DNA from: Patescibacteria group bacterium
GTDB lineage: Bacteria; Patescibacteriota; Minisyncoccia; Phycocordibacterales; DATDSR01
NCBI GenBank assembly: GCA_038062165.1
Contig: JBBTXQ010000018.1
Coordinates: 1-58,776, forward strand
Reading direction: 5' to 3'
DNA length: 58,776 nucleotides
A program made the translations under genes and the position numbers. Every line of letters starts with the position of its first letter. The stretch's first letter is position 1. Below the pieces are notes generated by a model. The model saw nothing but the letters and a program-made list of their open reading frames with translations, was not told where the DNA came from and searched no databases. This document shows, piece by piece, positions 4,614 to 49,882 of the stretch.

Positions 4614-4880
4614 ATGTCAGTTATCAAACGCCAATATCTCACGGAACGCTCTAGTCTTCTTTCAGAAAAAGGCATATATTCTTTCGTTGTCACAAGTGAG
4701 GCAAATAAAAGTGAAATTGCTAAGGCCTTAGAAACTAAATATAAAGTTAAGCCCATAAACGTGCGAGTAATTAATACCAAAGGCAAAGTTGTGGTCAGGG
4801 GTTACAAAAAGGGTCGCAAAGCGGGTATGCGCAAGGCTTATGTTAAATTTCCAGCCGGTACTAAAATAGAATCTGTTTAG
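4614..4880 (+). CDS. rplW: 50S ribosomal protein L23
   Basis: Size, position and KSEIAKALETKYKVKPINVRVIN match L23. Confidence 0.9.
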   Translation: MSVIKRQYLTERSSLLSEKGIYSFVVTSEANKSEIAKALETKYKVKPINVRVINTKGKVVVRGYKKGRKAGMRKAYVKFPAGTKIESV

Positions 4881-4904
4881 TTCGACTACGCTCACTATAA
4901 ATAA
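4878..4904 (+). promoter_or_regulatory. Conserved 27-nt intergenic motif TAGTTCGACTACGCTCACTATAAATAA, copy 1 of 3
   Basis: It begins with the rplW stop codon and ends 2 nt before the rplB ATG. Near-identical copies lie at 14027-14053 and 14444-14470. Confidence 0.5.
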
Positions 4905-5755: not shown

Positions 5756-5764
5756 TAATTGAGA

Positions 5765-5795
5765 AACGGCCCGACAATTGCCGGGCCGTTCTTTG
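5765..5795. terminator. Hairpin between rplB and the convergent orphan gene
   Basis: aacggcccg-acaattgc-cgggccgtt followed by cttt. Confidence 0.6.
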
Positions 5796-5810
5796 ATCGC
5801 GGGCGACGGG

Positions 5811-6095
5811 TCACATCCCCATCCCTCCGTAAGGGGGAGGGTGGTAGGGTGACCTATAGGCTTCCTCGTTGGCCTTCTTTATCGCTGCGGCAATCCGGAG
5901 CTGCTCGTCTTCTGGCAGTCCAGAGAACCACACCTCGAGCTCGCGCACTGCGCGCATGCCGAGGTAGACAAGGGCGACCCCGCCGAGAGCGAGAACAACC
6001 CAGAATCGCCACCAGCTCTCCACGTTGTAGAACGCCCCGGTAAGTGTCCCCACAGTTACCGCGGCGGCAAGCACGACGTAGCCGATTGTTCTCAT
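5811..6095 (-). CDS. Hypothetical small membrane protein (GC-rich orphan, 94 aa)
   Basis: Two hydrophobic helices (IGYVVLAAAVTVGTLTGAFY, FWVVLALGGVALVYLGM). A purine-rich SD-like AAGGGGG lies upstream. A hand count gives 35/60 G+C in 5811-5870. Confidence 0.55.
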   Translation of the reverse strand: MRTIGYVVLAAAVTVGTLTGAFYNVESWWRFWVVLALGGVALVYLGMRAVRELEVWFSGLPEDEQLRIAAAIKKANEEAYRSPYHPPPYGGMGM

Positions 6096-6448
6096 GACCT
6101 ATGGACCCCCTTCCCTTTCCAAACAGCTGCGCACCCGTTTGAGTATAACGCAACAGAGCCCTCGCTGGTAGTGAGAGCTCTGTCCAGCTTAGGGCATGGA
6201 TTAAGAAGTTCATATTTGTTGTGGATTGGTTGGTAATATCGATTTTCGCTTGACAGGTTATTTATTTGGGTATAGTCTAGATATACATGAATCGTTTTGT
6301 CATAACTTCCCGATCGATTTGCATTGAGACCTCAACTAAGATGTGGGGTATGTTTTCCCATTTCTATTTTAAACAACATATGCGCGGGTAATTAATACAT
6401 AAATTAGTAAGCAAGAACCCCGCGCAGAAATGTGTGGGGTTCTTCTTT

Positions 6449-6815
6449 TCCCGAGGGGAGGGATCATCAGTACTGATCTCCCCCCGGGGCAAGTGCTCTC
6501 ACGACACCAATTGGTGCGTGATAGGTCTTTGAGGCTAATCCCGACATTCTGTCGGGACGCCCGATCAAAAACACAGTTTTTGATTTAGGGAGGTCTTTAT
6601 GTGCGTGAGGCGTTGTGAGTTGCCGTGGGTGCCCGGTTCGTCTGACCCGTGTAGCATCCCGGAGCATCTCCGAGGCAGTGCCCCAAGCGAACCTGGCCCT
6701 GACTCCAGAGAGGAGGAGGTTTCCCGGCGTGAGGACGGGTTGTCTACACCCGGTCCAGCCTATTTCCCCGAGGGTGCTCTCTAGCTTCACCCCCTCCGAC
6801 ATCTGTCGGAGGGGC
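6449..6815. repeat. GC-rich cluster of local hairpins/palindromes (non-coding)
   Basis: Hairpins at about 6449-6489, 6500-6520, 6539-6558 (tcccgaca-ttc-tgtcggga), 6562-6586, 6734-6752 and 6789-6812 (cccctccgaca-tc-tgtcggagggg). The string tttccc(c)gaggg...gtgctctc recurs at both ends. Confidence 0.4.
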
Positions 6816-6858
6816 AACTTGCAAATTATTAGGTTAAGAGTAGTTTTATGGACATGAG

Positions 6859-6936
6859 TCCCGTTAGAAGCTTCGGGATTCACGCCACCATGCTACATAT
6901 TATCAACGCCAAATATAGTGTTAGCTTCTAACGGGA
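6859..6936 (+). repeat. Start-codon hairpin element, copy 1 (13-bp stem TCCCGTTAGAAGC / GCTTCTAACGGGA)
   Basis: Perfect 13-bp stem. The 3' arm ends on the A of the pepA ATG. ATGAG flanks both sides (6854-6858 and 6936-6940). Confidence 0.6.
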
Positions 6937-8294
6937 TGAGAATAATTAACAAAGACAAGTTAGGGAAAGGCCTGCCTGCCGGCAGGCAGGAGTACAAAAA
7001 GGCTGATTTTAAGGACGCAAATAGCTTGCGTAAATTTGTTTTGGCTGTACGCAAGGCTGTGGCTGATGCCAAGAAAGACAAGATGAAAAAAGTGGCAGTT
7101 ATCCTGAAAGAGATTCACAAGTTCGGGATTGGCGAGAGAGAATTGGGTGAGATAATTGCTCGCGAGGTACTGATTGCTGATTATGAATTTACTAAATACT
7201 TGAGCAAGCCAAAAGAGGGCTGGAGCTTTATTTCTGGATTTGCTCTTATCGGTAAAGTTAGTAAGGAGTTTAAGGTGGGAATTGAGAGGGGCAAAATAAT
7301 TGCGGGAGAAGTTAACATGACTCGCGAGCTGGCTAATACTCCGGGTGGCGAGATGGTTCCCAAGACTCTTGCCTTAGCCGCTCGAGAAGCAGTTAAAGAT
7401 TTGCCCAACACAAAAATAACAGTACTTGGCAAAAAGGAACTTGAGAAGCTGGGGATGGGAGCAGTGCTCGGTGTAGCCAAGGGCTCGCCAGAAGAGCCGC
7501 AATTTATTGTTGTGGAGTATCGCCCCCTAGCCCCCTCTTATGATAAGAGGGGGAACAAAGGGGGAGATATCGTTCTGGTTGGCAAAGGCGTGACCTTCGA
7601 TACTGGGGGACTCAATCTCAAGCCTACTGATGGCATTAACGACATGCACTTGGATATGTCCGGTGGTGCGGCTGTGATACACGCTGTTGCACTTGCTGCT
7701 AAACTTGGTGTGAAGAAAAATATAGTGGCGCTTGTGCCCGCGGTTGAGAACATGCCCGGAGGTTACTCATATAGACCCGGCGATATTCTTAAGTCGTTAT
7801 CTGGCAAAACTATTGAGATCAAAAATACTGATGCTGAAGGCAGAGTAATTCTCGCCGACGCTCTCACCTACGCCAAGAAGTTTAACCCAAGATTAGTTAT
7901 TGATGTCGCAACTCTAACTGGCGCGGCTTGTGTCGCCCTTGGCGAACGCGCCTCGGCTATCTTCACGCGTGATCAAGAGCTTGAAAAGTTGACGAGGGAA
8001 CTGGGAGAGAAGTCAGGCGATTATGTTTGGCCGATGCCCATGTGGGAAGAGTATGAGAGTGAAGTGAAGGGAACATTCGGCGATGTAGCTAATCTTGGCA
8101 AGAAGGGCAGGATGGGCGGAGCAATCTCGGGCGCAATGTTCTTACTGCAATTCACCAAAGATTACCCCAAAAGTACAAAGTGGATGCACATAGACATGGC
8201 CCCCACAATGACAGCTACAGACGACGAGTTTCTAGCCAAAGGAGCCAAAGGCAGTCCCGTCAAGCTCCTGCTTGCCTTGATTGAGAGTTACTGA
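6936..8294 (+). CDS. pepA: Leucyl aminopeptidase (M17 family)
   Basis: VLVGKGVTFDTGGLNLKP and NTDAEGRVILADAL M17 signatures. I prefer the ATG at 6936 over the GTG at 6918 because the same cttctaacgggATG junction precedes rplV and rplN. Confidence 0.9.
   Translation: MRIINKDKLGKGLPAGRQEYKKADFKDANSLRKFVLAVRKAVADAKKDKMKKVAVILKEIHKFGIGERELGEIIAREVLIADYEFTKYLSKPKEGWSFISGFALIGKVSKEFKVGIERGKIIAGEVNMTRELANTPGGEMVPKTLALAAREAVKDLPNTKITVLGKKELEKLGMGAVLGVAKGSPEEPQFIVVEYRPLAPSYDKRGNKGGDIVLVGKGVTFDTGGLNLKPTDGINDMHLDMSGGAAVIHAVALAAKLGVKKNIVALVPAVENMPGGYSYRPGDILKSLSGKTIEIKNTDAEGRVILADALTYAKKFNPRLVIDVATLTGAACVALGERASAIFTRDQELEKLTRELGEKSGDYVWPMPMWEEYESEVKGTFGDVANLGKKGRMGGAISGAMFLLQFTKDYPKSTKWMHIDMAPTMTATDDEFLAKGAKGSPVKLLLALIESY
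7518..7569. repeat. 52-nt nested palindromic element inserted in frame in pepA
   Basis: tatcgccccct-ag-CCCCCTCTTA-tg-ATAAGAGGGGGA-acaa-agggggagata. All four blocks (44 nt) are identical to recG 45293-45342. Confidence 0.7.
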
Positions 8295-8317
8295 AAGTTT
8301 GTAGAGAGACATTCGTC

Positions 8318-8548
8318 GTGTATAATATGAAAGTGAAAACACTTAACTGGACAAACGTAATAAAGAAATACAAGGGACTATGGGTTGGATTCAAGAACGA
8401 CAACAGGACCGTTATCGCTTCTGGTAGAACTCCAGCTGAAGTTATTAAGAAGGCAAAAAGTAGCGGATATGAAAATCCAATACTTTTCAGAGTGCCCAGC
8501 AGGCTAGTTGCCTTCGTTGGGATAATAGATGAAATTTCCATACGCTAA
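8318..8548 (+). CDS. DUF5678-like small protein (the ATG at 8327 is a possible start)
   Basis: KYKGLWVGFKNDNRTVIASGRTPAEVIKKAKSSGYENPILFRVP fits the KGKWVAI...a-helix...RVP pattern of DUF5678 proteins, as recalled from memory. Confidence 0.65.
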   Translation: MYNMKVKTLNWTNVIKKYKGLWVGFKNDNRTVIASGRTPAEVIKKAKSSGYENPILFRVPSRLVAFVGIIDEISIR

Positions 8549-8936
8549 ATTTGGTAGAGTTGGGAGTGAAATTATTAAACGCCCCGTTGTTCCAATTGAA
8601 GTTAAATTTGAAGATGAAACCGTCCTTTACGATGCCTTGATAGACTCCGGAGCGGATATTTGTATATTCGATGCTGCAATTGGCGAACAACTTGGTATCA
8701 ACATAATTTCTGGAATCCCAATTGTTTTTGGTGGAGCTGAATATTCCAAGGGTTCTGCGGCATATTTGCATCAAGTCAAAATAAAGATTAAAAATAAAGA
8801 AATAAAAACGCAAGTTGCCTTTACATACAACATCGCTAACCATGGTCATGGCCTTTTGGGGCAAAAAGGGTTTTTCGATAAATTTGCAATCAAATTTGAT
8901 TATTCCAATGATGTTGTAGATATTAGTTCCAGATAA
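8529..8936 (+). CDS. Retropepsin-like (clan AA) aspartic protease
   Basis: Catalytic LIDSGAD motif plus downstream GLLGQKGFF. 135 aa. It overlaps the preceding small gene by 20 nt. Confidence 0.75.
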   Translation: MKFPYAKFGRVGSEIIKRPVVPIEVKFEDETVLYDALIDSGADICIFDAAIGEQLGINIISGIPIVFGGAEYSKGSAAYLHQVKIKIKNKEIKTQVAFTYNIANHGHGLLGQKGFFDKFAIKFDYSNDVVDISSR

Positions 8937-8939
8937 AAT

Positions 8940-8990
8940 ACCAAAGGCAGCCCGGTCAAACTCCTACTTACCATCATTGAGAACTTTTAG
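8940..8990 (+). pseudogene. Displaced duplicate of the pepA 3' end
   Basis: It translates to TKGSPVKLLLTIIENF* against the pepA C-terminus AKGSPVKLLLALIESY* (8244-8294). Several of the nucleotide differences are synonymous. Confidence 0.6.
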
Positions 8991-9033
8991 GCCTTTTTTT
9001 GAAAAGAAATTAGCCCGCGATGTTTGGTCGGGG

Positions 9034-9288
9034 CTAAAGGTTCCCGGTCTCGTCTTTGATTTTCTCCATTATTCGCACTGGAATCGCATTTTCCTTAAGA
9101 CAGTCACACTTATCAAGTTGTGTGCCAGCAAGTTTGCTGGCATGTGGTAATTGCCATTCCATATTAAGCGTTTGGCGGTCTCTAATTCGCAACAAAGGCA
9201 AGTGCCTTACGCCGTTGCAAACGATGTAGTGATAGCACTCACCGGCCTGATAAGCTAGGAATACCCGTATTTCCGAATTTCCTTCCAT
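9034..9288 (-). CDS. Hypothetical protein (orphan, 84 aa)
   Basis: aaGAGGAGGAGGT lies immediately upstream of the ATG. A hairpin and T-run follow the stop. I recognise no family. Confidence 0.5.
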   Translation of the reverse strand: MEGNSEIRVFLAYQAGECYHYIVCNGVRHLPLLRIRDRQTLNMEWQLPHASKLAGTQLDKCDCLKENAIPVRIMEKIKDETGNL

Positions 9289-9319
9289 ACCTCCTCCTCT
9301 TGTTCAAGTATACACTCTC

Positions 9320-9348
9320 TTGCGTGGTAATTGCTTGCGTGATAGGAT
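9320..9348 (+). promoter_or_regulatory. Candidate promoter restarting rpsS transcription
   Basis: TTGCGT, 17-nt spacer, TAGGAT, with TG 1 nt upstream of the -10 box. The same gtgaTAGGATa box occurs at 13747-13752 upstream of rpsZ. Confidence 0.4.
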
Positions 9349-9395
9349 AGCCTTCGTCCCGCGTAGCCTTGTGCGAAGTGGGACTCACGTCTATT

Positions 9396-9740: not shown

Positions 9741-9760
9741 GAAGTAATAAGTAATATGAA

Positions 9761-9841
9761 TCCCATTAGAAGTATGTCTCAATTAAGTCACTGCGATATG
9801 TCAGGCGTATATACAATTAACGTAAGTAACTTCTAACGGGA
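9761..9841 (+). repeat. Start-codon hairpin element, copy 2
   Basis: TCCCATTAGAAGT...ACTTCTAACGGGA. ATGAA flanks both sides (9756-9760 and 9841-9845). A uORF runs 9756-9836. Confidence 0.6.
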
Positions 9842-10173
9842 TGAAAGCGAGTTTAAACAATTATAGGCAAGCTCCACGAAAAGTCAGATTAGTAACAGAT
9901 CTTATTAAGGGCAAGAGCGTAGAGAAAGCCAAAACAGAACTTGCGCATCTCTCTAAACGCGCTTCTACGCCTATTCTTAAACTTTTAAATTCAGCGATTG
10001 CTAACTCAAATTTAAATTTAAATGAGAGTGATAAAAATAACTTGTTTATAAAAAGTATTAGCGTAGACAAAGGGATTGTCTTGAAAAGGAGTATGCCACG
10101 CGCTCATGGTCGCGCATTTCCAATACACAAGCACACGTCGCACATCAAGTTAGAATTAGCCAGAAAATCATGA
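9841..10173 (+). CDS. rplV: 50S ribosomal protein L22
   Basis: NYRQAPRKVRLVTDLIKGKSVEKA...MPRAHGRAFPIHKHTSHI. Confidence 0.9.
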   Translation: MKASLNNYRQAPRKVRLVTDLIKGKSVEKAKTELAHLSKRASTPILKLLNSAIANSNLNLNESDKNNLFIKSISVDKGIVLKRSMPRAHGRAFPIHKHTSHIKLELARKS

Positions 10174-10529
10174 GTCATACAGTACATCCATACGCACATA
10201 GATTAGGAATTTTGCGAGACTGGAAGAGTCGCTGGTTCGTGGCGCGCATCAAGAAGCCTCTTTACAGACAGAATTTGAAAGCCGATGTGATGTTGCGCGA
10301 GACACTTGAAAAAGAGTTGCGTGCTTTCCTTGTTGATTCTATCGAAATTGAAAGAGGAGAGAATTATTTGAGAGTGATAGTGAAAACTGCCAGACCGGGT
10401 TTGATAATTGGTCGCTCCGGTGAAGGTTCAAATAAGCTCAAAGAGACTATTGTAAAAAGATTAAGAAAGTTAGGCGCCAATATTCCAAGAGATGTGCGTT
10501 TGCAGATTGAAGAGGTGCGCTCTCCCTAG
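10170..10529 (+). CDS. rpsC: 30S ribosomal protein S3, N-terminal (KH) part, ending at an in-frame TAG
   Basis: VHPYAHRLGILRDWKSRWF...ARPGLIIGRSGEGSNKL...QIEEVRSP then TAG at 10527-10529. Confidence 0.85.
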   Translation: MSHTVHPYAHRLGILRDWKSRWFVARIKKPLYRQNLKADVMLRETLEKELRAFLVDSIEIERGENYLRVIVKTARPGLIIGRSGEGSNKLKETIVKRLRKLGANIPRDVRLQIEEVRSP

Positions 10530-10544
10530 AGTCATGCCCAAATT

Positions 10545-10865
10545 GTGGCGCACATGATTGAAGAGGCCATAGAAAAGCGCACACCATTTAGACGCACTCT
10601 CAAACAGAGTATTGAGAAGATTATGGCTAATAAAGACGTTAAGGGAGTGAAGATTACACTTTCGGGTAGACTGGACGGTTCAGAAATGGGTCGGGTTGAG
10701 TCGCTCATGAAGGGGCGTTTGCCATTGCAAACTCTGCGAGCCGATATTGACTTCGCAAAGGGCCGAGCTCGCATGCCTTACGGAGATATTGGCATAAAGG
10801 TTTGGATTTATAGGGGAGAGATATTTGCTGAAACGCAAAACGCAAAACGCAAAACGCAAAATTAA
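10545..10865 (+). CDS. rpsC: 30S ribosomal protein S3, C-terminal part (same frame as 10170-10529)
   Basis: IEEAIEKRTPFRRTLKQSI...GVKITLSGRLDGSEMGR...LPLQTLRADIDFAKGRA...GIKVWIY. GTG 10545 and ATG 10554 are the only possible restarts. Confidence 0.85.
   Translation: MAHMIEEAIEKRTPFRRTLKQSIEKIMANKDVKGVKITLSGRLDGSEMGRVESLMKGRLPLQTLRADIDFAKGRARMPYGDIGIKVWIYRGEIFAETQNAKRKTQN
10834..10861 (+). repeat. Heptanucleotide tandem repeat (CGCAAAA x4)
   Basis: Four perfect 7-nt units in the last codons of rpsC, 6 nt upstream of the rplP ATG. Confidence 0.8.
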
Positions 10866-11304: not shown

Positions 11305-11541
11305 ATGGAAGACACAAAAACAAAACATAAAATGTCTGGGATAGTAGTGGGAGACAAAATGAACAAGACTCGAGTCGTTTCTGTTGAACGTTTCGCTAAG
11401 CATCCCAAATACGGCAAGTTCATTCACACCAGTAAAAAGTACAAAGCTCACGATGAAACTAACTCAACCCATGTTGGTGATAAAGTGACTATAGAAGAAT
11501 GCCGGCCTATCTCACGCGATAAGCATTTCAGAATTGTATAA
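11305..11541 (+). CDS. rpsQ: 30S ribosomal protein S17
   Basis: [29 protein letters not shown]...[21 protein letters not shown]. It follows rplP after 12 nt, leaving no room for rpmC. Confidence 0.9.
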
Positions 11542-11621
11542 TCCCATTAGAAGTATAGTTATATAATGTCAATAAACATGTCAAATTTACACACAATTAA
11601 CGTAAGTAACTTCTAACGGGA
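11542..11621 (+). repeat. Start-codon hairpin element, copy 3
   Basis: It has the same arms as copy 2 and the shared internal block ACAATTAACGTAAGTAACTTCTAACGGG. It starts right after the rpsQ TAA and ends on the A of the rplN ATG. Confidence 0.6.
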
Positions 11622-11989
11622 TGATTCAACCACGAGCAATAGTAAAAATAGCTGACAACACCGGAGCCAAAATTGGGCGTATTTTCAAAGTGCTCGGCGG
11701 TTCTAAACGCAGATACGCTCGCGTAGGCGATTTGGTTGTGCTATCTGTCCAAACAGCCGAACCTCGTAAGATGGCCAAGAAGAAGGAAGTGCATAGGGCC
11801 GTGGTTGTGAGGCAAAGGGCCAACATGCGCCGTTCTGACGGATCTTATATCAGGTTTGATGAGAATGCAGTTGTGCTAGTTGACGTTAAGAATGAACCTA
11901 AAGGAGCACGTGTTTTCGGTCCTGTGCCTAGAGAGTTAACAGAAATGGGATTCCAGAAGATAGCCTCACTTGCGCCAGAGATTGTATAA
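11621..11989 (+). CDS. rplN: 50S ribosomal protein L14
   Basis: [17 protein letters not shown]...[10 protein letters not shown]. Confidence 0.95.
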
Positions 11990-13843: not shown

Positions 13844-14029
13844 GTGGCAAAAAAGAGCACAATTGCACGGTCGAAACGGACGCCTAAGTACAAAAGTCGC
13901 GTGGTGCGACGTTGTTTCAGATGCGGCCGCAAACGCGCTTATATGCGTGACTTTGACATGTGTAGGATATGTTTCCGCGAGGCGGCAAATGAAGGACGTA
14001 TCCCCGGCATTAGAAAAGCATCGTGGTAG
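13844..14029 (+). CDS. rpsZ: 30S ribosomal protein S14, type Z (zinc-binding); GTG start
   Basis: MAKKSTIARSKRTPKYKSRVVRRCFRCGRKRAYMRDFDMCRICFRE; 61 aa with CxxC...CxxC. Confidence 0.9.
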   Translation: MAKKSTIARSKRTPKYKSRVVRRCFRCGRKRAYMRDFDMCRICFREAANEGRIPGIRKASW

Positions 14030-14053
14030 TTCGACTGCGCTCACTATAAATAA
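14027..14053 (+). promoter_or_regulatory. Conserved 27-nt intergenic motif, copy 2
   Basis: TAGTTCGACTGCGCTCACTATAAATAA. It starts at the rpsZ stop codon, and the rpsH ATG follows 3 nt later. Confidence 0.5.
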
Positions 14054-14056
14054 ACT

Positions 14057-14446
14057 ATGGATCAAATTTCTGACATGTTAATTAGAATCAAGAATGCCGG
14101 TAGCGCCCGGCAGGATTCTACAATTGTGCCTTATTCTAAACTTAAGTTTGAGATTGCGAATGTTCTATTGAGTGAAAGTTATATCAAATCTTTTTCGGTT
14201 AAAGGTAAAAAAGTACGCAAGCACATAGAAGTAGAAATTGCTTATCGAGACGATGGCTCTGTTCGCATAACTGATGTTAATCGCATTTCTAAATTATCAA
14301 GACGCGTTTATCTTGGTGCTAAAGATATCAGACCCGTTAAACAGGGCACTGGCCTGCTCGTGCTCTCTACCCCCAAGGGTATCCTGTCAGGCAGAGATGC
14401 CCGCAAGCAGATGGTCGGAGGTGAAGCGTTATTTAGTATCTGGTAG
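14057..14446 (+). CDS. rpsH: 30S ribosomal protein S8
   Basis: DQISDMLIRIKNAGSAR...GTGLLVLSTPKGILSGRDARK. Confidence 0.95.
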   Translation: MDQISDMLIRIKNAGSARQDSTIVPYSKLKFEIANVLLSESYIKSFSVKGKKVRKHIEVEIAYRDDGSVRITDVNRISKLSRRVYLGAKDIRPVKQGTGLLVLSTPKGILSGRDARKQMVGGEALFSIW

Positions 14447-14470
14447 TTCGACTACGCTCACTATAAATAA
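14444..14470 (+). promoter_or_regulatory. Conserved 27-nt intergenic motif, copy 3
   Basis: TAGTTCGACTACGCTCACTATAAATAA. It starts at the rpsH stop codon, and the rplF ATG follows 2 nt later. Confidence 0.5.
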
Positions 14471-27839: not shown

Positions 27840-28169
27840 ATGATGATTTTCACCGTCTATATTCTCTACTCAGCAAAGACGCGAACTCTATATGTTGGAT
27901 GTACATCTGATCTAGACAATAGGCTTAATAAGCATTTTCGAGGAGAAGTTTTTTCAACCAAAAACAAAAGGCCACTATCCTTGATTCATCAGGAATTATT
28001 CAAGGACAAGGGGAAAGCATTTCAACGAGAAAGATTCCTAAAAAGCCTTTGGGGCGCAAGAGAGAAGAAAAAAATATTGACTAATTACCTATCTGTTTTA
28101 GGGCTAAATCAATCGCTTTGCGATTGGTCGCCCGAACATTGCGACATGTCGCAATGTTTTAGGGGATGA
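27840..28169 (+). CDS. GIY-YIG nuclease family small protein; the 3' tail reads into a repeat and the tmRNA 5' end
   Basis: FTVYILYSAKTRTLYVGCTSDLDNRLNKH...RERFLKSLWGAREKKKIL. The last 20 or so codons translate the repeat at 28101-28165. Confidence 0.7.
   Translation: MMIFTVYILYSAKTRTLYVGCTSDLDNRLNKHFRGEVFSTKNKRPLSLIHQELFKDKGKAFQRERFLKSLWGAREKKKILTNYLSVLGLNQSLCDWSPEHCDMSQCFRG
28101..28165 (+). repeat. Two-hairpin GGGCTAAATC...AATGTTTTAGGGG element, copy b
   Basis: gggctaaatCAATCGCtttGCGATTGgtcgcccgAACATTGCGACAtGTCGCAATGTTttagggg. Its terminal GGGG is the first 4 nt of the tmRNA. Confidence 0.55.
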
Positions 28170-28558
28170 TCGGCCTAGACATAGATCGTGCACTTTGTGC
28201 GCAAGTCGTGAGAGTATGTGTCACGCTAATCACACATGCAAAAGTTACCTGCAAAGGAAACTAATGGGGAGCAGGGTTCATTTGTGGCTAGTCCATTTAT
28301 GTTCTCTGCTTTCGCGCTCGCTTAAGTCGAGCGCCATTCTATCCGCAAGAAGCTTCGGTAACGGATAGGGTGTAACCACAGGAGCTAGCCCAGCCCTTAA
28401 CTTCAAGGGCTGGGTGAAATAAAGAAGTTATACTGTGAGCGCTTTCGTTTATCTTCTATACTCACAGCGAAATCCGCCAGCTGGCGGAAAGATAAACTAA
28501 ACTTGTAGATCCACTCTCTGCATTTCTATGCACGGCGGTTCGATTCCGCCCATCTCCA
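28162..28558 (+). ncRNA. ssrA: tmRNA (SsrA)
   Basis: The 5' GGGGATG pairs with the 3' CATCTCC and includes a G3:U70 pair. T-arm GGCGGTTCGATTCCGCC. The tag ORF ends ...FSAFALA-TAA (stop 28323-28325), with a possible resume codon GCA at 28251. A terminator lies at 28617-28645. smpB is 1.7 kb upstream. Confidence 0.8.
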
Positions 28559-30983: not shown

Positions 30984-31583
30984 ATGGCTAAGTTAGTGAA
31001 CCGTGCTGATTTTGTGGCTAAGATTAAGGCTAGGGGGATAGTCCTCTTTTCACCGCGCGATATACAAACAGTGTTCGGAGTTTCTAAGGTTGCTGCCACT
31101 TTCTTACTCCATCGCTATAAAAAAGGAGGTATTATCGTTAGCGTCAAGCGGGGTTTATATTCTTTCCCAGACGCCTTACCTCCTGAATTGTATCTAGCCA
31201 ACAAGCTTTATAATCCATCTTATGTATCACGCGAGTTTGCACTTTCCTACCACGGGATCATTCCCGAGACTGTCTACGAGATAACATCAGTAACTACAAA
31301 GGCAACTCGGCGGTTTGAGACGGTGGGTAAAATATATTCGTATAGGCGAATCAAGAAATCAGCATTTACAGGATACGTTGTGGAGAAACAGCGTGGATTT
31401 ACTTTCCGCATCGCAGATATTGAAAAAGCTTTTGTTGACAGCCTTTACTACCGAGTCCTTTTTAGCAAGAAACCTATTAGTCGTTTTGACAAGACTAAAA
31501 TTAACAAAGACAAGGCGCTTAAGTATGCGCAGTTATTTAATAATCAAAAACTTATTGCTATACTAAAAAGAACACTTCAATGA
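30984..31583 (+). CDS. abiEi: AbiEi-family antitoxin (type IV TA / abortive infection)
   Basis: N-terminal wHTH-like FSPRDIQTVFGVSKVAATFLLHRYKKGGIIVSVKRGLYSF. It overlaps the AbiEii gene by 4 nt. Confidence 0.8.
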   Translation: MAKLVNRADFVAKIKARGIVLFSPRDIQTVFGVSKVAATFLLHRYKKGGIIVSVKRGLYSFPDALPPELYLANKLYNPSYVSREFALSYHGIIPETVYEITSVTTKATRRFETVGKIYSYRRIKKSAFTGYVVEKQRGFTFRIADIEKAFVDSLYYRVLFSKKPISRFDKTKINKDKALKYAQLFNNQKLIAILKRTLQ

Positions 31584-32335
31584 TAGGGTCAGAAATATTT
31601 GAACGTATTGCTCGGCAGGAACAAACAAGTGTATTCCCAAACATTGTCCGTGAATACGCGCAACACTTGTTTCTGACAGAACTATACCAACTTCAAGGAT
31701 CGGAGAGGTTGCTTTTCAAGGGCGGAACTGCGCTACGTATTGTCTATAACTCGCCACGTTTTTCAGAGGATTTAGACTTCTCTTTATTTGGGGTATCAAT
31801 TCCAGAGGCTACAAAATTTGTGGAGGACTTATTTGTTGGTGTTCTCGCGAAAATGGAGGCGAACGGCATTCGTGTGGACATAAGTAACAAATCACACTCG
31901 ACAAGTGGCGGATACGTTGGATTAGCCACCCTACACGCAGATGGCTATGCGCCTATAAACATAGAGTTAAACATATCATTCCGTAATGGCCGTGTTGTTC
32001 AAGCAGAAGTTGATAGCATTAGTAATAATTTCGTGCCAACTTACACATTATACCATCTACCACAGGAAGAACTGGTTGACGAAAAAGTGTTTGGGGCACT
32101 CATGCAACGAAAGAAGCCTAGGGATTACTACGACCTATACTTTATAATGAGAAAAGGGATGTTGTCACAAGAGCAAAAGGGCAAGCTGGCCAAAGTTTCT
32201 GCACAGATTGTTAATGAGGCTAGCAAGGTTGATTTCCGTACCGAACTTGAGGCATTTCTACCAGCAAGCCAACAAGCTATCATTCGCAACTTTTCACAGA
32301 CGTTAGAACGTGAGATGAGAAATCAACTCGCGTAG
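31580..32335 (+). CDS. abiEii: AbiEii/AbiGii-family nucleotidyltransferase toxin
   Basis: LLFKGGTALRIVYNSPRFSEDLDFS and KPRDYYDLYFI motifs. Confidence 0.85.
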   Translation: MIGSEIFERIARQEQTSVFPNIVREYAQHLFLTELYQLQGSERLLFKGGTALRIVYNSPRFSEDLDFSLFGVSIPEATKFVEDLFVGVLAKMEANGIRVDISNKSHSTSGGYVGLATLHADGYAPINIELNISFRNGRVVQAEVDSISNNFVPTYTLYHLPQEELVDEKVFGALMQRKKPRDYYDLYFIMRKGMLSQEQKGKLAKVSAQIVNEASKVDFRTELEAFLPASQQAIIRNFSQTLEREMRNQLA

Positions 32336-40746: not shown

Positions 40747-40819
40747 GGGCGTGTAGCTCAGTTGGTAGAGCGTTCGTCTTATACACGGAGGGTTCTTGGT
40801 TCGAGTCCAAGCGGGTGGA
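40747..40819 (+). pseudogene. tRNA-Ile(UAU)-like gene with a non-complementary acceptor stem
   Basis: The D-arm, anticodon arm (TTCGT-CTTATAC-ACGGA) and T-arm (CTTGG-TTCGAGT-CCAAG) all fold. However, the 5' GGGCGTG faces the 3' CGGGTGG, giving 3 mismatches. Its first 25 nt are identical to the tRNA at 43315. Confidence 0.5.
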
Positions 40820-43126: not shown

Positions 43127-43314
43127 AGTGAGTATCCCGAACTCCATGGGCTACCTATTCGACAATTTCGTAGGCCGTATATTAAGAAAGCTACGTTTAA
43201 ATCACTTACTTACAAGGGAGGTTTTGGTCACGGTACCCGTAATGTTATGATTAGCAACGCGGGTTTGATGAGGAAGATTATGATGGGGTTACAGGTGTTG
43301 AAAGATCACTTTAT

Positions 43315-43387
43315 GGGCGTGTAGCTCAGTTGGTAGAGCACGGAGCTTATACCTCCGCGGTCCCTGGTTCGAGCCCAGGCACGCCCA
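43315..43387 (+). tRNA. tRNA-Ile, anticodon UAU
   Basis: 73-nt cloverleaf: GGGCGTG/CACGCCC acceptor, GCTC-AGTTGGTA-GAGC, CGGAG-CTTATAC-CTCCG, CCTGG-TTCGAGC-CCAGG. CCA is not encoded. Confidence 0.85.
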
Positions 43388-43412
43388 TTAGCCAAACTCG
43401 GACTCTTTTTTG

Positions 43413-47402: not shown

Positions 47403-47485
47403 GATGTCCAAGTTCGAACCGAAGTGAAATGAGGGTTTTATACGAGATGTTAAACTTTCCCCTGTTTCCAGTGGATCATTGTTGC

Positions 47486-47491
47486 TATAAT
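47486..47491 (+). promoter_or_regulatory. -10 box 6 nt upstream of the R-M gene ATG (leaderless-type)
   Basis: TATAAT-tactgt-ATG (47498). Confidence 0.45.
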
Positions 47492-47497
47492 TACTGT

Positions 47498-49882
47498 ATG
47501 TCAAAAAACGAGAAAAAAACTGAAAATTTATCTCGTAAACTTCTGACCAAGGCTGGTATCTTTGATAACAGTGATTTTATTGTAGAGGAACAAAAAAGTG
47601 ATAACCCTATAATTCAAAAACTTCTAAAGGGTGCTAGTAAATCGGGTGCAGGTCTAGGGAAACCAGAGTTTATAATTCGTAAAAAGGATGACAACGATTT
47701 TCTGATGATCATTGAGTGTAAGGCAGATACAAAATATCACGAATCAAAAAATAGGGATCTATATAAAGACTATGCCGTTGATGGTGCACTTTTGTACGGA
47801 AGTCATCTGGCTCGGACATTTAATGTCATTGCAATTGGCATAAGTGGAGAAAATGAAGATGATTCAAAAATCAGTACCTATTTATATCCTAAAAATTCAT
47901 CTATTTATACAGATTTGTTGGATGAAAATAATCAAAAGATTCAAAAGATATTAAATTGGGGTAGGTACATCGAAAGAGCGAAATTTGACCCCGTCATGGC
48001 AAAAACACGTCATACAGATTTGATGAAATTTTCCCGTGAATTGCATGATTACTTGCGTGATTACGCAAAAGTAACTGAAGCTCAAAAGCCACTTTTAGTG
48101 AGCGGTGTATTGCTTGCGCTCATGGAAAAGGGTTTTGAGAAGGCATACATTGCCTATGAAGGCGAAGATCTAGCAAGAAAGACATTTCAAGCAATAAAAG
48201 ATGTTATTGATAGTGTCCAGCTTGGAGAAAACCAAGAGTCAAAGAAAAAAGCGGTCATTAACGCTTTTAGTTTTATCGAGCATCATCCAGAATTACATAA
48301 AATTGACATAAAAAAGAACGAATCACCCCTAAAGCATGTGATTCAGGAATTACATCTCCATGTTAAACCTTTTACAGAAAACCACTATGATTTTGATATC
48401 ATCGGTAATTTTTATGGTGAATTTATTCGATATACTGGTGGTGATAAACAGGGACTTGGTATAGTTCTTACTCCTAAACATATTACTGATCTTTTTGCAG
48501 ATATTACAAAAGTCAATAAAAACTCTGTAGTACTTGATATTTGTGCCGGAACCGCTGGATTTCTTATATCGGCCATGAAAAAAATGACTCGAGATGTCGA
48601 TGCAGATGAAAAACGAAGGATACTTGAAAACTCACTCATCGGCATCGAACAGGAGCCTCAGATGTTTGCTCTTGCTGTCTCTAATATGATTCTGCGTGGT
48701 GACGGAAAAACCAACCTTTATCAGGGTGATGGTTTGAGAGATCAGAACATTATTGAAAAAGTAAGAGAAAAAGCAGATACGGGTTTTATCAATCCTCCTT
48801 ATTCACAAAAAGGCGAGGATGTTTCAGAGTGGCATTTTATTATTCAAATGCTTGATTTATTAAAAACAAAAGGCACAGGCATTGCGATTGTGCCGATGCA
48901 ACTTGCTATCGACACAAAGAACCCAATGAGAGAAAAGCTTTTGAAAAATCACCGTCTTGAGGCTGTTATGAGTATGCCGGATGACTTGTTTTATCCCGTC
49001 GGAGTCGTCACTTGCATTATGGTTTTTACTGCACATGTACCACATGAGGGTGACCCACATCATGAAAGTTGGTTCGGATATTGGAAAGATGATGGATTCA
49101 AAAAAGATAGGGTGCAAGGCAGAATTCCCAAGAATGATAAGCTATGGAAAACCATAAAAAATGAATGGTTAGTTAATTTTAGTAATAAAAAAGAAACACC
49201 TGGAAAATCAGTAAGAAAAAAAGTTAGCCAAACAGATGAATGGTGTGTGGAAGCTTACCTAGAAACTGATTACTTAAATTTGTCTGATCAAGAGTTTATT
49301 GAATCTGGAAGACGGTATCTTGCTTTTTTGATAAGGAACGGTGATTTTGCTTTAGTCAGAGAACTTTCCGGAAATAATCGGGAGGTCAAATTAAATTTGG
49401 GGCAATTTAACTGGTTTACATATCAAGATTTGTTTAATAATCCAAAAATCGGAAAAAGTATCGATTTAAACAAACTTGAGGAGTCAGAGGACGGCATAAA
49501 TTATGTTGGTCGTACTGAAGAGAATAATGGTATTACCGCAAAGGTTATAAATGATGGAAGCTTTGAAGTTTATCGAGGTGGGTGCATTACAGTCCCAATG
49601 GTTGGCAATGAGCTTAAGTCAAGTTATCAAACAGATCCTTTTTGTGTATCCCAGAATATCGCTATTTTAGAACCAAAGAATTTTACACTAAATCCATTTT
49701 TAGCTATTTTTCTGAACACAATTATTCGTAAAGATAGATTCCGGTTTGCTTATGGAAGAACTTTAAGTCTTGACCGACTAAAGATGTTAAAAATTAAACT
49801 TCCAACAGACAAAGAAGGGAATCCCAATTGGAAATTTATGGAAGATTATATAAAATCTTTGCCGTATTCAGCGAGCATATAG
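47498..49882 (+). CDS. Single-chain restriction-modification enzyme (Type IIG/IIB-like: PD-ExK nuclease + gamma-class N6-adenine methyltransferase + one target-recognition domain)
   Basis: N-terminal DFLMIIECK; methylase motif I VVLDICAGTAGFLISA and motif IV FINPPYS; C-terminal roughly 250 aa resemble a Type I S-subunit TRD. Confidence 0.75.
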   Translation: MSKNEKKTENLSRKLLTKAGIFDNSDFIVEEQKSDNPIIQKLLKGASKSGAGLGKPEFIIRKKDDNDFLMIIECKADTKYHESKNRDLYKDYAVDGALLYGSHLARTFNVIAIGISGENEDDSKISTYLYPKNSSIYTDLLDENNQKIQKILNWGRYIERAKFDPVMAKTRHTDLMKFSRELHDYLRDYAKVTEAQKPLLVSGVLLALMEKGFEKAYIAYEGEDLARKTFQAIKDVIDSVQLGENQESKKKAVINAFSFIEHHPELHKIDIKKNESPLKHVIQELHLHVKPFTENHYDFDIIGNFYGEFIRYTGGDKQGLGIVLTPKHITDLFADITKVNKNSVVLDICAGTAGFLISAMKKMTRDVDADEKRRILENSLIGIEQEPQMFALAVSNMILRGDGKTNLYQGDGLRDQNIIEKVREKADTGFINPPYSQKGEDVSEWHFIIQMLDLLKTKGTGIAIVPMQLAIDTKNPMREKLLKNHRLEAVMSMPDDLFYPVGVVTCIMVFTAHVPHEGDPHHESWFGYWKDDGFKKDRVQGRIPKNDKLWKTIKNEWLVNFSNKKETPGKSVRKKVSQTDEWCVEAYLETDYLNLSDQEFIESGRRYLAFLIRNGDFALVRELSGNNREVKLNLGQFNWFTYQDLFNNPKIGKSIDLNKLEESEDGINYVGRTEENNGITAKVINDGSFEVYRGGCITVPMVGNELKSSYQTDPFCVSQNIAILEPKNFTLNPFLAIFLNTIIRKDRFRFAYGRTLSLDRLKMLKIKLPTDKEGNPNWKFMEDYIKSLPYSASI

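Follow-up and report, generated by a model that had tools for sequence, protein, structure and literature searches.

A MITE found at start codons in Patescibacteria, whose last base completes the ATG of the downstream gene

Three hairpins that lie on the start codons of pepA, rplV and rplN in a 58,776-nucleotide stretch of DNA from a Patescibacteria group bacterium (contig JBBTXQ010000018.1, the whole stretch being referred to here as the window) are copies of a MITE, a small non-autonomous inverted-repeat DNA transposon that has no gene of its own and is present in many copies. The element is widespread in ultra-small uncultured bacteria and can occupy a start codon without destroying the start of the gene. 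Taken together, the results are very probably explained by such a MITE, with the start codon being rebuilt at insertion and the gene probably being expressed by re-initiation after a short upstream open reading frame (uORF).

All three copies and their genes are on the forward strand. Copy 1 (6859-6936, 78 bp) has 13-bp inverted termini at 6859-6871 and 6924-6936, and it ends with the A that opens the ATG of pepA (6936-8294). Copy 2 (9761-9841, 81 bp) and copy 3 (11542-11621, 80 bp) end in the same manner on the A of the ATG of rplV (9841-10173) and rplN (11621-11989), respectively. The termini read TCCC(G/A)TTAGAAG(C/T) ... (G/A)CTTCTAACGGGA, and the window contains exactly three instances of the right terminus CTTCTAACGGGATG. 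When the window was searched for the terminus on both strands with up to two mismatches, seven matches were found compared to 0.31 expected, and none of 100 shuffled sequences gave seven. The stem is closed at position 13 by C:G in copy 1 and by T:A in copies 2 and 3, while the left arm of copy 2 has an A at position 5 that leaves an A:C mismatch. Thus, the three copies, their coordinates and the compensatory change at the inner end of the stem, all of which were given in a preliminary description of this DNA, were confirmed when the sequence was read again, and the identity of the three genes was confirmed by their open reading frames (Peptidase_M17, Ribosomal_L22 and Ribosomal_L14).

The repeats reported there for the first two copies, ATGAG/ATGAG and ATGAA/ATGAA, are exact. 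Copy 1 is flanked on the left by TGAG (6855-6858), which together with A6854 is the original pepA start and now the start of a uORF, and on the right by TGAG (6937-6940), which together with A6936 of the element is the working pepA start. Copy 2 is preceded by ATGAA (9756-9760), where its uORF begins, and followed by TGAA (9842-9845). The pair ATAAT/ATGAT proposed for copy 3 does not stand, as it requires the first T of the element to be counted twice; in a plain reading there is no duplication, and the stop codon of rpsQ (TAA, 11539-11541) directly adjoins the first base of the element.

Mobility was indicated by a comparison of orthologous sites, which the preliminary description had proposed. 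In L118, the closest relative found, the sequence at pepA is ggacATGAGaataa, which corresponds to the window sequence with the element and one of the repeats removed and retains a single ATGAG. The rplV site is filled in the window and in L120 and empty in L118, with a single ATGAA, and in L122. The rplN site is filled in the window only (empty in L118, L120 and L122), and the rplX site is filled in L120 only among the four relatives compared. The species tree of these four is ((window, L118), L120), L122. L118 branches between the window and L120, yet its rplV site is empty, which represents either seamless loss or two independent insertions. In the L120 copy at rplV an upstream TAA adjoins the element and there is no repeat. 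Other signs of a dispersed repeat were noted as well. For example, L070 and L084, which belong to one MAG, have interiors that are 96% identical, one at gyrB and the other at an unrelated gene; and nested copies are present in L030 and L116. Contigs of the groundwater metagenomes break at the repeated terminus and gave no information on polymorphism. The three hairpins are mobile DNA and not an ancestral leader, and the earlier suggestion of a MITE-like element with a target-site duplication is borne out by the empty pepA site and by presence and absence among relatives.

The duplication differs in length from the one first suggested. A true duplication at ATGA(R) was upheld, but it is, judging from the flanks, 4 bp long (T-N-N-A) rather than 5 bp, and the last base of the element supplies the A with which the right-hand ATG begins. 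Perfect 4-nt repeats flank 86 copies with T...A termini and 74 copies with C...G termini among the matches listed. In about 88% of copies the duplicated sequence starts with T and has A as its fourth base, with the middle bases free (TGAA, TGGA, TAAA and TTGA were all seen). A 5-bp duplication was ruled out by three observations. First, left flanks of GTGAA, GTGGA or GTGAG are paired with ATG on the right in the T...A class. Secondly, in the C...G class the arrangement ATGAA|C...G|TGAA yields GTG as the rebuilt start. Third, the base preferences at -1 and +1 are mutually independent, symmetric and mirror the terminal base of the element. It was also ruled out that the right repeat is carried by the element, as in IS200/IS605, because the repeats vary within one subfamily (ATGAA, ATGTA, ATGGA) and still match within each copy. 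Flanking ATGAR repeats are not universal: TTGA and TAAA duplications exist, about a third of the copies have no matching duplication, and 12 copies without a repeat share the left flank AC(T/C)TG.

These flanks suggest how insertion would proceed. An enzyme supplied in trans would insert the element by a 4-bp staggered cut at T-N-N-A, a chemistry read from the duplication alone because no transposase or autonomous copy was found. The enzyme would prefer, roughly two-fold, a flanking base identical to the terminal base of the element, which for the T...A class is A before and T after, and these two preferences together would favor A|TG(A/G)A as a target. Because the element contributes a terminal A next to the duplicated TG, an intact ATG is rebuilt on the right side and the reading frame is left unchanged. 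The start codon survives for this reason, and insertions therefore persist even in ribosomal-protein and other essential genes. Elsewhere, insertions survive only between genes, at stop codons or in frame.

The family comprises at least 117 loci in species-representative genomes, mostly of Patescibacteria, and at least 120 further loci in metagenomes, where 119 of 134 elements among the matches listed have C...G termini. Elements are 67-97 bp long. The consensus terminus is (T or C)CCCRTTAGAA followed by two variable, complementary bases, giving a 13-bp inverted repeat; the C...G class begins with C (CCCCGTTAGAA) and the T...A class, including the window copies, with TCCC. Among the matches listed, stem position 12 is complementary in 87 of 88 members and position 13 in 80 of 88 despite variation, and pairing is random from position 14 onward. 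The interior is not conserved between subfamilies, and an internal partial copy of the terminus is found near one end. The same 13-bp terminus is found in Patescibacteria, Planctomycetota, Omnitrophota, WOR-3 and others. Lone termini were considered as candidates for autonomous copies and were traced to nested or degenerate copies or to longer ones (about 277 bp). A search of viral contigs for a phage vector gave two matches only, neither at a gene start. No description of the element was found in the searchable literature by sequence string or by topic.

A stem conserved in this manner could also point to mobilization as single-stranded hairpin DNA by an HUH/Y1 transposase (IS200/IS605, REPIN-RAYT) or by an integron-type integrase acting on attC-like sites, instead of by a DDE transposase. 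This is suggested by the conservation of the stem with a free loop, by compensatory changes at stem positions 1, 12 and 13, by termini conserved across phyla and by bare mini-palindromes of the same sequence at L120 8881-8908 and L035 7077-7125. However, HUH/Y1 and integron systems make no target-site duplication, whereas the repeat of the element is a true duplication and the empty site has one copy of it. In addition, no GTAG-type REP signature was seen by eye in the conserved termini, and GTTAGAA is 5' and TTCTAAC 3' on both strands, whereas attC requires RYYYAAC 5' and GTTRRRY 3'. We consider mobilization by this route improbable.

The element resembles other bacterial MITEs, namely the Correia/nemis elements of Neisseria, ERIC and the Tn3-derived TIMEs, in being short and non-coding with inverted repeats and a target-site duplication, in its many copies with presence and absence among relatives and in being co-transcribed with its neighbors as a hairpin. 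It differs in that it is smaller than most of them, in that an 11-13 bp terminus is constant across several phyla with an unconserved interior, and in that about 70% of one class lies on start codons with the ATG rebuilt by the last base. Correia elements duplicate TA, whereas this element duplicates 4-bp T-N-N-A. We know of no parent insertion sequence for it.

The presence of one 13-bp terminus across phyla points to a horizontally travelling transposase, not yet found beside copies of the element. In 1.76 Mb of loci there was no pair of termini 140-5000 bp apart that enclosed a gene, no repeated transposase-like open reading frame and no cluster of such frames, and no transposase domain was identified by Pfam in the 10 window open reading frames selected for scanning. 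By analogy, an enzyme similar to those of piggyBac and IS1380 may be taken as a lead. PiggyBac combines 13-bp terminal repeats with asymmetric sub-terminal repeats, duplicates a 4-bp TTAA target and excises precisely, and termini in its superfamily are 12-19 bp long with a conserved initial C, usually CCC (PMC5381638). The element likewise has 13-bp termini, (Y)CCCGTTAGAA, a 4-bp T-N-N-A duplication, of which TTAA is one form, and a partial internal terminus near one end. It differs in that the T...A class starts with T and not C, the middle two bases of the target are not constrained, the rplV pattern can be read in two ways of which precise excision is one, and no transposase of the piggyBac/IS1380 type adjoins any copy in the loci examined. 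IS1380-family elements end in CC and produce 4-5 bp duplications; papers on IS1380 yielded no details of the terminus or duplication. The terminus of piggyBac, which we take to be CCCTAGAAAGATA, resembles CCCGTTAGAAAGAT of L016 and L040.

The preliminary description had the element inserted exactly at start codons. The excess at start codons is real, but the element is not restricted to them. Among the matches listed, the ATG opens an open reading frame of at least 60 codons in 88 of 125 elements (about 70% of T...A copies), and only 7.6% of 4379 ATGRA sites in the same loci look like N-termini. The N-termini next to the elements are native, as in DnaA, DnaG, GyrB, GlyRS, L4, L13 and S21. At these starts position 4 of the gene is R in 94% compared to 66% in the background, and position 5 is A in 80% compared to 37%, among the matches listed. 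Copies are also found in frame within genes, at stop codons and between genes. Thus, what appears as start-codon targeting would be a preferred motif, A|T-N-R-A, together with the survival of harmless insertions, and this is the best explanation of the excess from the sequences compared. The genomes of Patescibacteria are very small and leave hardly any intergenic DNA to spare, and the element illustrates that selfish DNA can spread in streamlined genomes by landing harmlessly on a start codon, on a stop codon or in frame.

Alternatively, the insertion mechanism itself could be targeted at start codons or at sites of transcription initiation, such as the melted open promoter complexes of leaderless genes. 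Several results are in line with this. The excess over the base rate is about nine-fold. In 21 of 57 copies the left ATG is preceded, at a distance of 5-9 nt, by a strong -10 box, compared to 14.6% of 658 background starts, a difference that may be overstated because background starts were approximated crudely, as the first ATG of long open reading frames. The window subfamily consists of seven copies in three genomes, all seven at start codons, and rplV was hit in two lineages with the intermediate relative empty. Orientation relative to the gene is not random either. A comparison of L032 with L074 had suggested that it was, and this was overturned by a count by subfamily of 14 in the same and one in the opposite orientation and by the skew of motifs on the sense strand (CGGGA 19 and TCCCG 2; GGAGG 10 and CCTCC 1). 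On the other hand, TTGA or TAAA duplications flank copies with the same termini in coding regions, at stop codons and between genes, and only 23 of 117 C...G copies among the matches listed are at starts. The symmetric, independent preferences at -1 and +1 are what is expected of a symmetric enzyme that reads sequence, and rplV, rplN and rplX lie within an operon. Directed insertion is therefore regarded as unlikely beside motif preference and survival.

The copies within genes bear on how the element is tolerated. In-frame copies flanked by TTGA or TAAA duplications were seen in RsmH, PepA, GatB, UvrC and PurD. All 10 copies in open reading frames are 68, 71 or 74 bp long, so that length plus 4 is divisible by three, and none contains a stop codon. 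Five of them are inside conserved domains, with the Pfam domain continuing on both sides of the element, and the other five lie within less well defined proteins or slightly upstream of them. The frame reads xPVRS...SNGx, a peptide of about 25 residues. From this constraint on length and stop codons, the copies are probably translated. Gene callers may thus report odd 25-residue inserts in RsmH, GatB, UvrC, PurD and PepA; they may also pick the wrong ATG or predict phantom peptides of 25 residues.

The constraint on length also bears on whether the element is skipped after transcription, either as a tiny intron or by translational bypass as in T4 gene 60 and the byp elements of yeast mitochondria, with the repeats as take-off and landing sites. 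Identical short repeats do flank a hairpin, as in bypass elements, and insertions are tolerated within essential genes. However, multiples of three nucleotides without a stop are needed only if the element is translated, the right-hand ATG can start on its own, many copies lack the left ATG or left repeat, and no ribozyme or intron family was matched in Rfam. Skipping is scarcely credible on this evidence, and translation of the in-frame copies is preferred.

Translated copies recall the Rickettsia palindromic elements (RPEs), which are likewise palindromic selfish DNA, inserted in frame in conserved genes and translated as an extra peptide. The element differs from RPEs in its hosts (Patescibacteria and other uncultured phyla), in its sequence, in its clear target-site duplication and in that most T...A copies are at start codons and not within genes. 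RPEs are about twice as long. To our knowledge, no transposase has been assigned to either of them.

A hairpin that ends on a start codon might also be a conserved structured leader RNA, i.e. a regulatory 5' UTR hairpin or an RNase processing site, with the repeats being incidental. Apart from its position, this is suggested by the 12 copies without a repeat, many of which have, by eye, a -10-like box upstream of the element, so that the element could form most or all of the 5' UTR. In addition, the CGGGA in excess on the sense strand can pair with the left arm, as it does in the minimum-free-energy RNA fold of copy 1. Against this, orthologous sites are empty and copies lie in frame within coding regions. 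The interior is not conserved between subfamilies, and Rfam gave no relevant match for the window at the gathering threshold or for copy 1 and a GC-rich copy at E up to 10. Copy 2 folded as RNA no better than shuffled sequences (z = -0.6), and the excess of G:U mismatches expected from selection for a sense-RNA hairpin was not seen, with G:U (62) and A:C (56) balanced in the stem. This balance speaks neither for nor against the suggestion in the preliminary description that the stem occludes the region just upstream of the start codon. A leader RNA as the origin of the element is largely refuted, and we judge this explanation highly improbable compared to a MITE.

No Shine-Dalgarno sequence was present in 32 starts inspected in this genome. 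A -10 box 6-9 nt upstream is frequent among the starts and points to leaderless mRNAs. A possible pepA promoter was seen by eye at 6819-6846 (TTGCAA, 16 nt, TAGTTT, then 7 nt to A6854). It is conserved in L118 and was not called by the consensus promoter scan. If it holds, the pepA transcript would start at the left ATG and be leaderless. TATAAT-like boxes are common in element interiors, and an internal sigma-70 promoter was considered; the scan called none in the window copies.

The uORFs of 25 and 26 residues noted in the preliminary description were confirmed, although they are in frame only with their TAA and not with the downstream gene. The uORF of copy 1 (6854-6931) has 25 codons (MSPVRS...VSF) and a TAA at 6929-6931, 4 nt before the pepA ATG. 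That of copy 2 (9756-9836) has 26 codons (MNPIRS...SNF), an internal in-frame ATG at 9798 and a TAA at 9834-9836, 4 nt before the rplV ATG. Copy 3 contains a mini-ORF (11566-11616) with ATG at 11566 and again at 11578 and TAA at 11614-11616. All seven subfamily copies in the alignment retain the second of these ATGs and have no stop in the frame. Coupling to the gene received statistical support in the family. Of the 29 copies among the matches listed that keep the left ATG, 21 have no stop in frame ahead of the TAA, compared to 8 of 29 reverse-complement controls. The uORF ends at a TAA at -7 or at an overlapping TGA in 46 of 88 copies, and half of the copies at start codons lack a uORF in a suitable position, again among the matches listed. 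In-frame interior ATGs number 22 on the sense and 7 on the antisense strand, compared to 14.3 +/- 3.3 in shuffles, among the matches listed.

After insertion the old ATG would probably still initiate, giving a short uORF through the element. Its stop would be either the TAA borne by the terminus, which lies 4 nt ahead of the rebuilt ATG, or the TGA of ATGA, and re-initiation at the rebuilt ATG could follow. Copies without the left ATG may depend on internal ATGs or on acquired GGAGG boxes.

A stronger version, which we hold to be doubtful, is that the T...A class is a transposon shaped for the start codons of organisms with leaderless mRNAs and not merely tolerated there. The terminal A, the TAA 4 nt upstream and the sense mini-ORF or GGAGG would then be a portable re-initiation cassette by which expression of the host gene is maintained, and melted promoter DNA at the +1 ATG may attract insertion. 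By analogy with piggyBac, the element may excise seamlessly and, if so, insertions in essential genes would be reversible.

The arrangement resembles uORFs of the termination-reinitiation type in that the stop overlaps the main start codon or precedes it by 4 nt, and it resembles leaderless translation in that the transcript start probably coincides with the uORF ATG. It differs in that the uORF is not a dedicated regulatory gene and is made by a transposon, with its stop within the terminus. The family provides dozens of natural constructs in which the uORF stop is 4 nt from the main ATG, in hosts that seemingly lack Shine-Dalgarno sequences, so that re-initiation after a leaderless uORF is directly testable.

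Three elements of about 80 bp lie on the forward strand of the window, with left termini TCCC(G/A)TTAGAAG(C/T) and right termini (G/A)CTTCTAACGGGA. The last A of each element is the first base of an ATG: copy 1 (6859-6936) opens the Peptidase_M17 ORF 6936-8294 (pepA), copy 2 (9761-9841) opens the Ribosomal_L22 ORF 9841-10173 (rplV) and copy 3 (11542-11621) opens the Ribosomal_L14 ORF 11621-11989 (rplN). The 14-mer CTTCTAACGGGATG occurs exactly three times in the window, and a search of both strands for the terminus with up to two mismatches gave 7 matches against 0.31 expected, a number reached by none of the shuffles. Thus, the inverted termini and the 3' arms ending on the start-codon A were borne out as in the preliminary description, the former by the sequence at all three coordinates and the latter by the ORF and Pfam assignments. 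The same holds for the uORFs of copies 1 and 2, which are 25 and 26 codons long and stop at the right-terminus TAA, separated from the real ATG by 4 nt. The flanking repeats are exact in copy 1 (ATGAG/ATGAG) and copy 2 (ATGAA/ATGAA). The ATAAT/ATGAT proposed for copy 3 requires the first T of the element to be counted twice; the rpsQ stop TAA (11539-11541) directly abuts this copy and the duplication is absent there. With that exception, the hairpin observation as a whole was confirmed by reading the sequence.

The hairpins had been taken for a MITE-like mobile element, and a comparison with orthologous empty sites had been proposed. For this comparison, the ribosomal-protein clusters of the nearest relatives were retrieved via their L16 proteins. 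The closest relative among those retrieved, locus L118, shares 85.7% identity with the window across six ribosomal proteins, and the tree with the relatives L120 and L122 is ((window, L118), L120), L122. Upstream of pepA, L118 reads ...gttaagagtagttttatggacATGAGaataatta..., which is the window minus the element and minus one repeat copy; L120 is not comparable at this start, which is not present at this locus in L122. At the rplV start, the window and L120 have the element and L118 and L122 have an empty site; the rplN start is filled in the window and empty in all three relatives, and the rplX start is filled in L120 and empty in the window, L118 and L122. In addition, loci L070 and L084 of the same MAG carry copies with interiors 96% identical, before gyrB and before an unrelated gene, and nested copies (element within element) were found in L030 and L116. 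An ancestral leader RNA cannot give such a pattern of filled and empty sites with nested and near-identical copies, and is largely ruled out as the origin by the empty orthologous sites and the copies at unrelated genes. The empty pepA site of L118 and the differences at rplV, rplN and rplX support a MITE-like mobile element. The rplV site, which carries the element in the window and in L120 but not in L118, placed between them in the tree, is compatible with seamless excision as well as with two separate insertions.

The genome-wide search for the termini, also suggested in the preliminary description, utilized the pattern TCCCRTTAGAA N45-75 TTCTAACGGGA over species-representative genomes and identified at least 117 loci of the class with terminal T and A (T...A), to which the window copies belong. 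Most are Patescibacteria (Saccharibacteria, Nomura-, Yanofsky-, Kaiser-, Kerfeld-, Levyi-, Morani-, Zambryski- and Uhrbacteria, Kazan), and some are Planctomycetota (Phycisphaerae, Pirellulales, Sedimentisphaerales), Omnitrophota, WOR-3 and Stahlbacteria; only 2 viral contigs carry the element. Lengths range from 67 to 97 bp among the matches listed, and interiors of different subfamilies show no relationship to one another. The inverted repeat extends over exactly 13 bp, with pairing at chance level from position 14 onward, and stem positions 12 and 13 are variable yet complementary in 87/88 and 80/88 copies. A second scan, of metagenomes with a terminal A forbidden, identified a class with terminal C and G (C...G), whose termini are CCCCGTTAGAA...TTCTAACGGGG in 119 of the 134 elements among the matches listed; the two classes are equally large, the counts on both sides being lower bounds. 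Thus, the outermost base pair too varies in a compensatory way. Compensatory change at positions 1, 12 and 13 would fit equally ends that co-evolve with a transposase or an enzyme that reads the hairpin. The stem has no RNA-specific signature (G:U versus A:C mismatches, 62 to 56), Rfam gave no family match for any copy tested, and literature searches found no paper on this element.

Several related forms were also observed. Bare mini-palindromes of terminus sequence alone, such as CCCCGTTAGAGGtgaaCCTCTAACGGGG, occur in L120 (8881-8908) and L035 (7077-7125); they are similar to REP-like hairpins that either descend from the element or gave rise to it. Relatives with variant termini CCCGTTAGAGAT...ATCTCTAACGGG and a greater length, about 277 bp, occur in L207 (431-707) and L236 (2343-2620) and may be intermediates toward a parent element. 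The copy at L037 1981-2064 and a GC-rich subfamily (L003, L018, L020, L057, L071, L079, L115) were noted together; interiors of this subfamily have a very stable predicted Y-shaped fold (single-stranded DNA, -32 kcal/mol, z = -8.9), and its copies are those most often in frame within proteins.

The target-site duplication placed at ATGA by the preliminary description is real, as the single repeat of the empty site indicates; its extent has to be revised. Only 4 bp are duplicated, and the element itself supplies the A of the right-hand ATG. Perfect repeats in the T...A copies listed read TGAA, TGGA, TGAG, TGTA, TTGA, TAAA or their reverse complements, about 88% of them following T-N-N-A. Three observations place the terminal A outside the duplication. 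First, some copies pair a left flank of GTGAA, GTGGA, GTGAG or CTGAG with ATG on the right. Secondly, C...G copies in ATGAA give ATGAA, the element and then TGAA, so that the rebuilt codon is GTG. Third, beside the repeat the T...A class prefers A at -1 (67%) and T at +1 (60%) and the C...G class G at -1 (43%) and C at +1 (38%), and the joint counts of these matches to the element's terminal bases are consistent with independence. The target of the window's class is roughly T-N-R-A preceded by A and followed by T. Element-bearing genes have a purine at position 4 in 94% and A at position 5 in 80%, versus 66% and 37% in background genes, with no base preference at position 6. In one subfamily the repeats vary among copies (ATGAA, ATGTA, ATGGA) but agree within each copy, and therefore were made at insertion and not transported by the element. 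A flanking ATGAR duplication is not universal, since TTGA and TAAA repeats and repeat-less copies were found among the matches listed. A start-codon class without duplication comprises L007, L009, L012, L013, L014, L019, L023, L031, L060, L075, L080, L095 and L101. The left flank AC(T/C)TG is common to 12 repeat-less copies from distant lineages, and L007 reads GCTTG. A -10-like box precedes many AC(T/C)TG copies, and the 5' UTR could then consist mostly or entirely of the element; in RNA, the YUG of this flank could form wobble pairs opposite AUG and lengthen the stem. The rplV copy of L120, like copy 3, has an upstream TAA touching the element and no repeat, and could reflect a microhomology deletion (AA...AA).

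The association with start codons is real but not exclusive. The terminal A and flank form an ATG opening an ORF of at least 60 codons in 88 of the 125 T...A copies listed; of 4379 ATGRA sites in the same loci, only 7.6% resemble N-termini. Native N-termini downstream, identified by eye from N-terminal sequences, include DnaA, DnaG, GyrB, GlyRS, ThrRS, MetRS, MreB, Ndk, HisA, TrmD, SecE, L4, L13 and S21. Against start-codon targeting as it had been proposed, other copies lie in frame within ORFs and the C...G class lies mostly elsewhere, with only 23 of the 117 copies listed at gene starts; several others have a long upstream ORF ending at the TAA within a TAAA-type duplication. Insertion drawn directly to promoters or start sites seems to us unlikely. 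In our interpretation, the enzyme reads a short motif in which ATG-RA happens to be included, and selection then leaves almost only harmless positions; at start codons the T...A class does particularly little harm, since it rebuilds ATG. Ten further copies from the T...A scan lie inside ORFs. All ten are 68, 71 or 74 bp long, have a length that plus 4 is a multiple of 3, leave the host frame stop-free and read xPVRS...SNG(I/T), and for five of them host Pfam domains continue on either side (RsmH (Methyltransf_5), PepA, GatB, UvrC, PurD). Judged from sequence, this rule means that such inserts would be translated; splicing or bypass is at odds with ten of ten coding copies being 3n and stop-free. 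Rickettsia palindromic elements are likewise in-frame translated inserts. On the C...G-class metagenome contig L144, an ABC-transporter-like ATPase ORF from 2654 begins MSVNPVRNS...IISNGVS, where the element would be read as an N-terminal extension. The kind of element is already known, a MITE with an RPE-like coding habit; its small size, spread across phyla, start-codon lifestyle and stop codon built into the terminus are new.

That the duplication is short and of constant length suggests a mobilising enzyme of DDE type. In 1.76 Mb of fetched loci no terminus pair encloses a gene and no repeated transposase-like ORF was found, and Pfam gave no transposase domain in ten selected window ORFs. 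The piggyBac/IS1380 superfamily is the nearest nameable resemblance, as a lead and not a membership. IS1380-family elements have CC ends and 4-5 bp duplications, and the piggyBac terminus, which we take to be CCCTAGAAAGATA, resembles CCCGTTAGAAAGAT of loci L016 and L040. The piggyBac element has 13-bp terminal repeats with a conserved first C, commonly CCC, asymmetric sub-terminal repeats, a 4-bp TTAA duplication and precise excision (PMC5381638). However, the initial base of the T...A class is not C, and no such transposase was seen in the loci examined.

No Shine-Dalgarno sequence was found at 32 window gene starts inspected (for example 4907, 14057, 42470 and 50109), and many have a TATAAT-like box, read by eye, 6-9 nt before ATG, some within the ribosomal cluster, a pattern suggesting that this organism translates mostly leaderless mRNAs. 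In 21/57 copies the left ATG, the original start codon, is preceded at a distance of 5-9 nt by a strong -10 box, versus 14.6% of 658 approximate background starts. Thus, element-bearing genes probably give leaderless mRNAs starting at ATG. After insertion, the old ATG would remain the 5' end of the transcript and would now start the uORF. Where the left ATG is kept and the length is divisible by 3, 21/29 copies have a frame that stays open as far as the TAA 4 nt ahead of the real ATG, versus 8/29 in the reverse-complement control, so that the element-installed uORF of the preliminary description appears real, with signs of selection. A left-ATG uORF continues into the gene in the same frame (length 2 mod 3) in 1/12, and 46/88 copies listed have some ATG-started uORF that terminates either at that TAA or at the TGA within ATGA.

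We read several asymmetries between the strands as pointing to post-insertion selection on the strand that is transcribed. Interior in-frame ATGs number 22 in sense and 7 in antisense (14.3 +/- 3.3 in shuffled interiors), GGAGG about 13 nt before ATG in other subfamilies 10 versus 1, and interiors within subfamilies have the same orientation relative to the gene in 14 cases versus 1 opposite. A partial third copy of the terminus favors the sense strand (CGGGA 19 versus TCCCG 2); CGGGA can pair with the left arm, freeing the right arm, as in the predicted minimum-free-energy RNA fold of copy 1. In the window's own subfamily (7 copies, three genomes), every copy has retained an internal ATG whose 12-codon frame runs uninterrupted to the TAA; this could serve copy 3, where the left ATG is missing.

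Other features of this Patescibacteria-type contig, whose relatives are Paceibacterota, were noted. In the S10/spc ribosomal-protein cluster, an insert (5756-9368) with pepA and other genes separates rplB from rpsS; it also holds a GC-rich stretch packed with short palindromes (about 5760-6850) and a small aspartyl-protease-like ORF (8529-8936). Upstream of rpsS, L118 carries ParE-like, response regulator and DUF6612 genes, L120 NUDIX, and L122 genes for an M20 peptidase and a DNA methylase (no rplB was seen in these loci); this stretch looks like a gene-insertion hot spot. A second repeat family, GTTCGACT(A/G)CGCTCACTATAAATAA, occurs at 4880-4904, 14029-14053 and 14446-14470 (3 found versus 0 expected), ending 2-3 nt before the ATG of rplB, rpsH and rplF with a TATAAA box about 6-7 nt from ATG, and may be a repeated, possibly mobile, leaderless promoter. 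The rpsC gene is split by an in-frame TAG (10527-10529) into ORFs 10170-10529 and 10545-10865; at 10527, three public runs have contigs with G in place of T (GAG), so the stop is probably an assembly error or rare variant. In addition, the window holds a small GIY-YIG nuclease ORF ending at the start of the tmRNA gene 28162-28558 (together 27840-28558), an AbiEi/AbiEii toxin-antitoxin pair (30984-32335), an N6 DNA methylase fused with a type I specificity domain (47429-49882), a truncated tRNA-like Rfam match with no ARAGORN call (40752-40813) and a tRNA-Ile with anticodon TAT (43314-43388).
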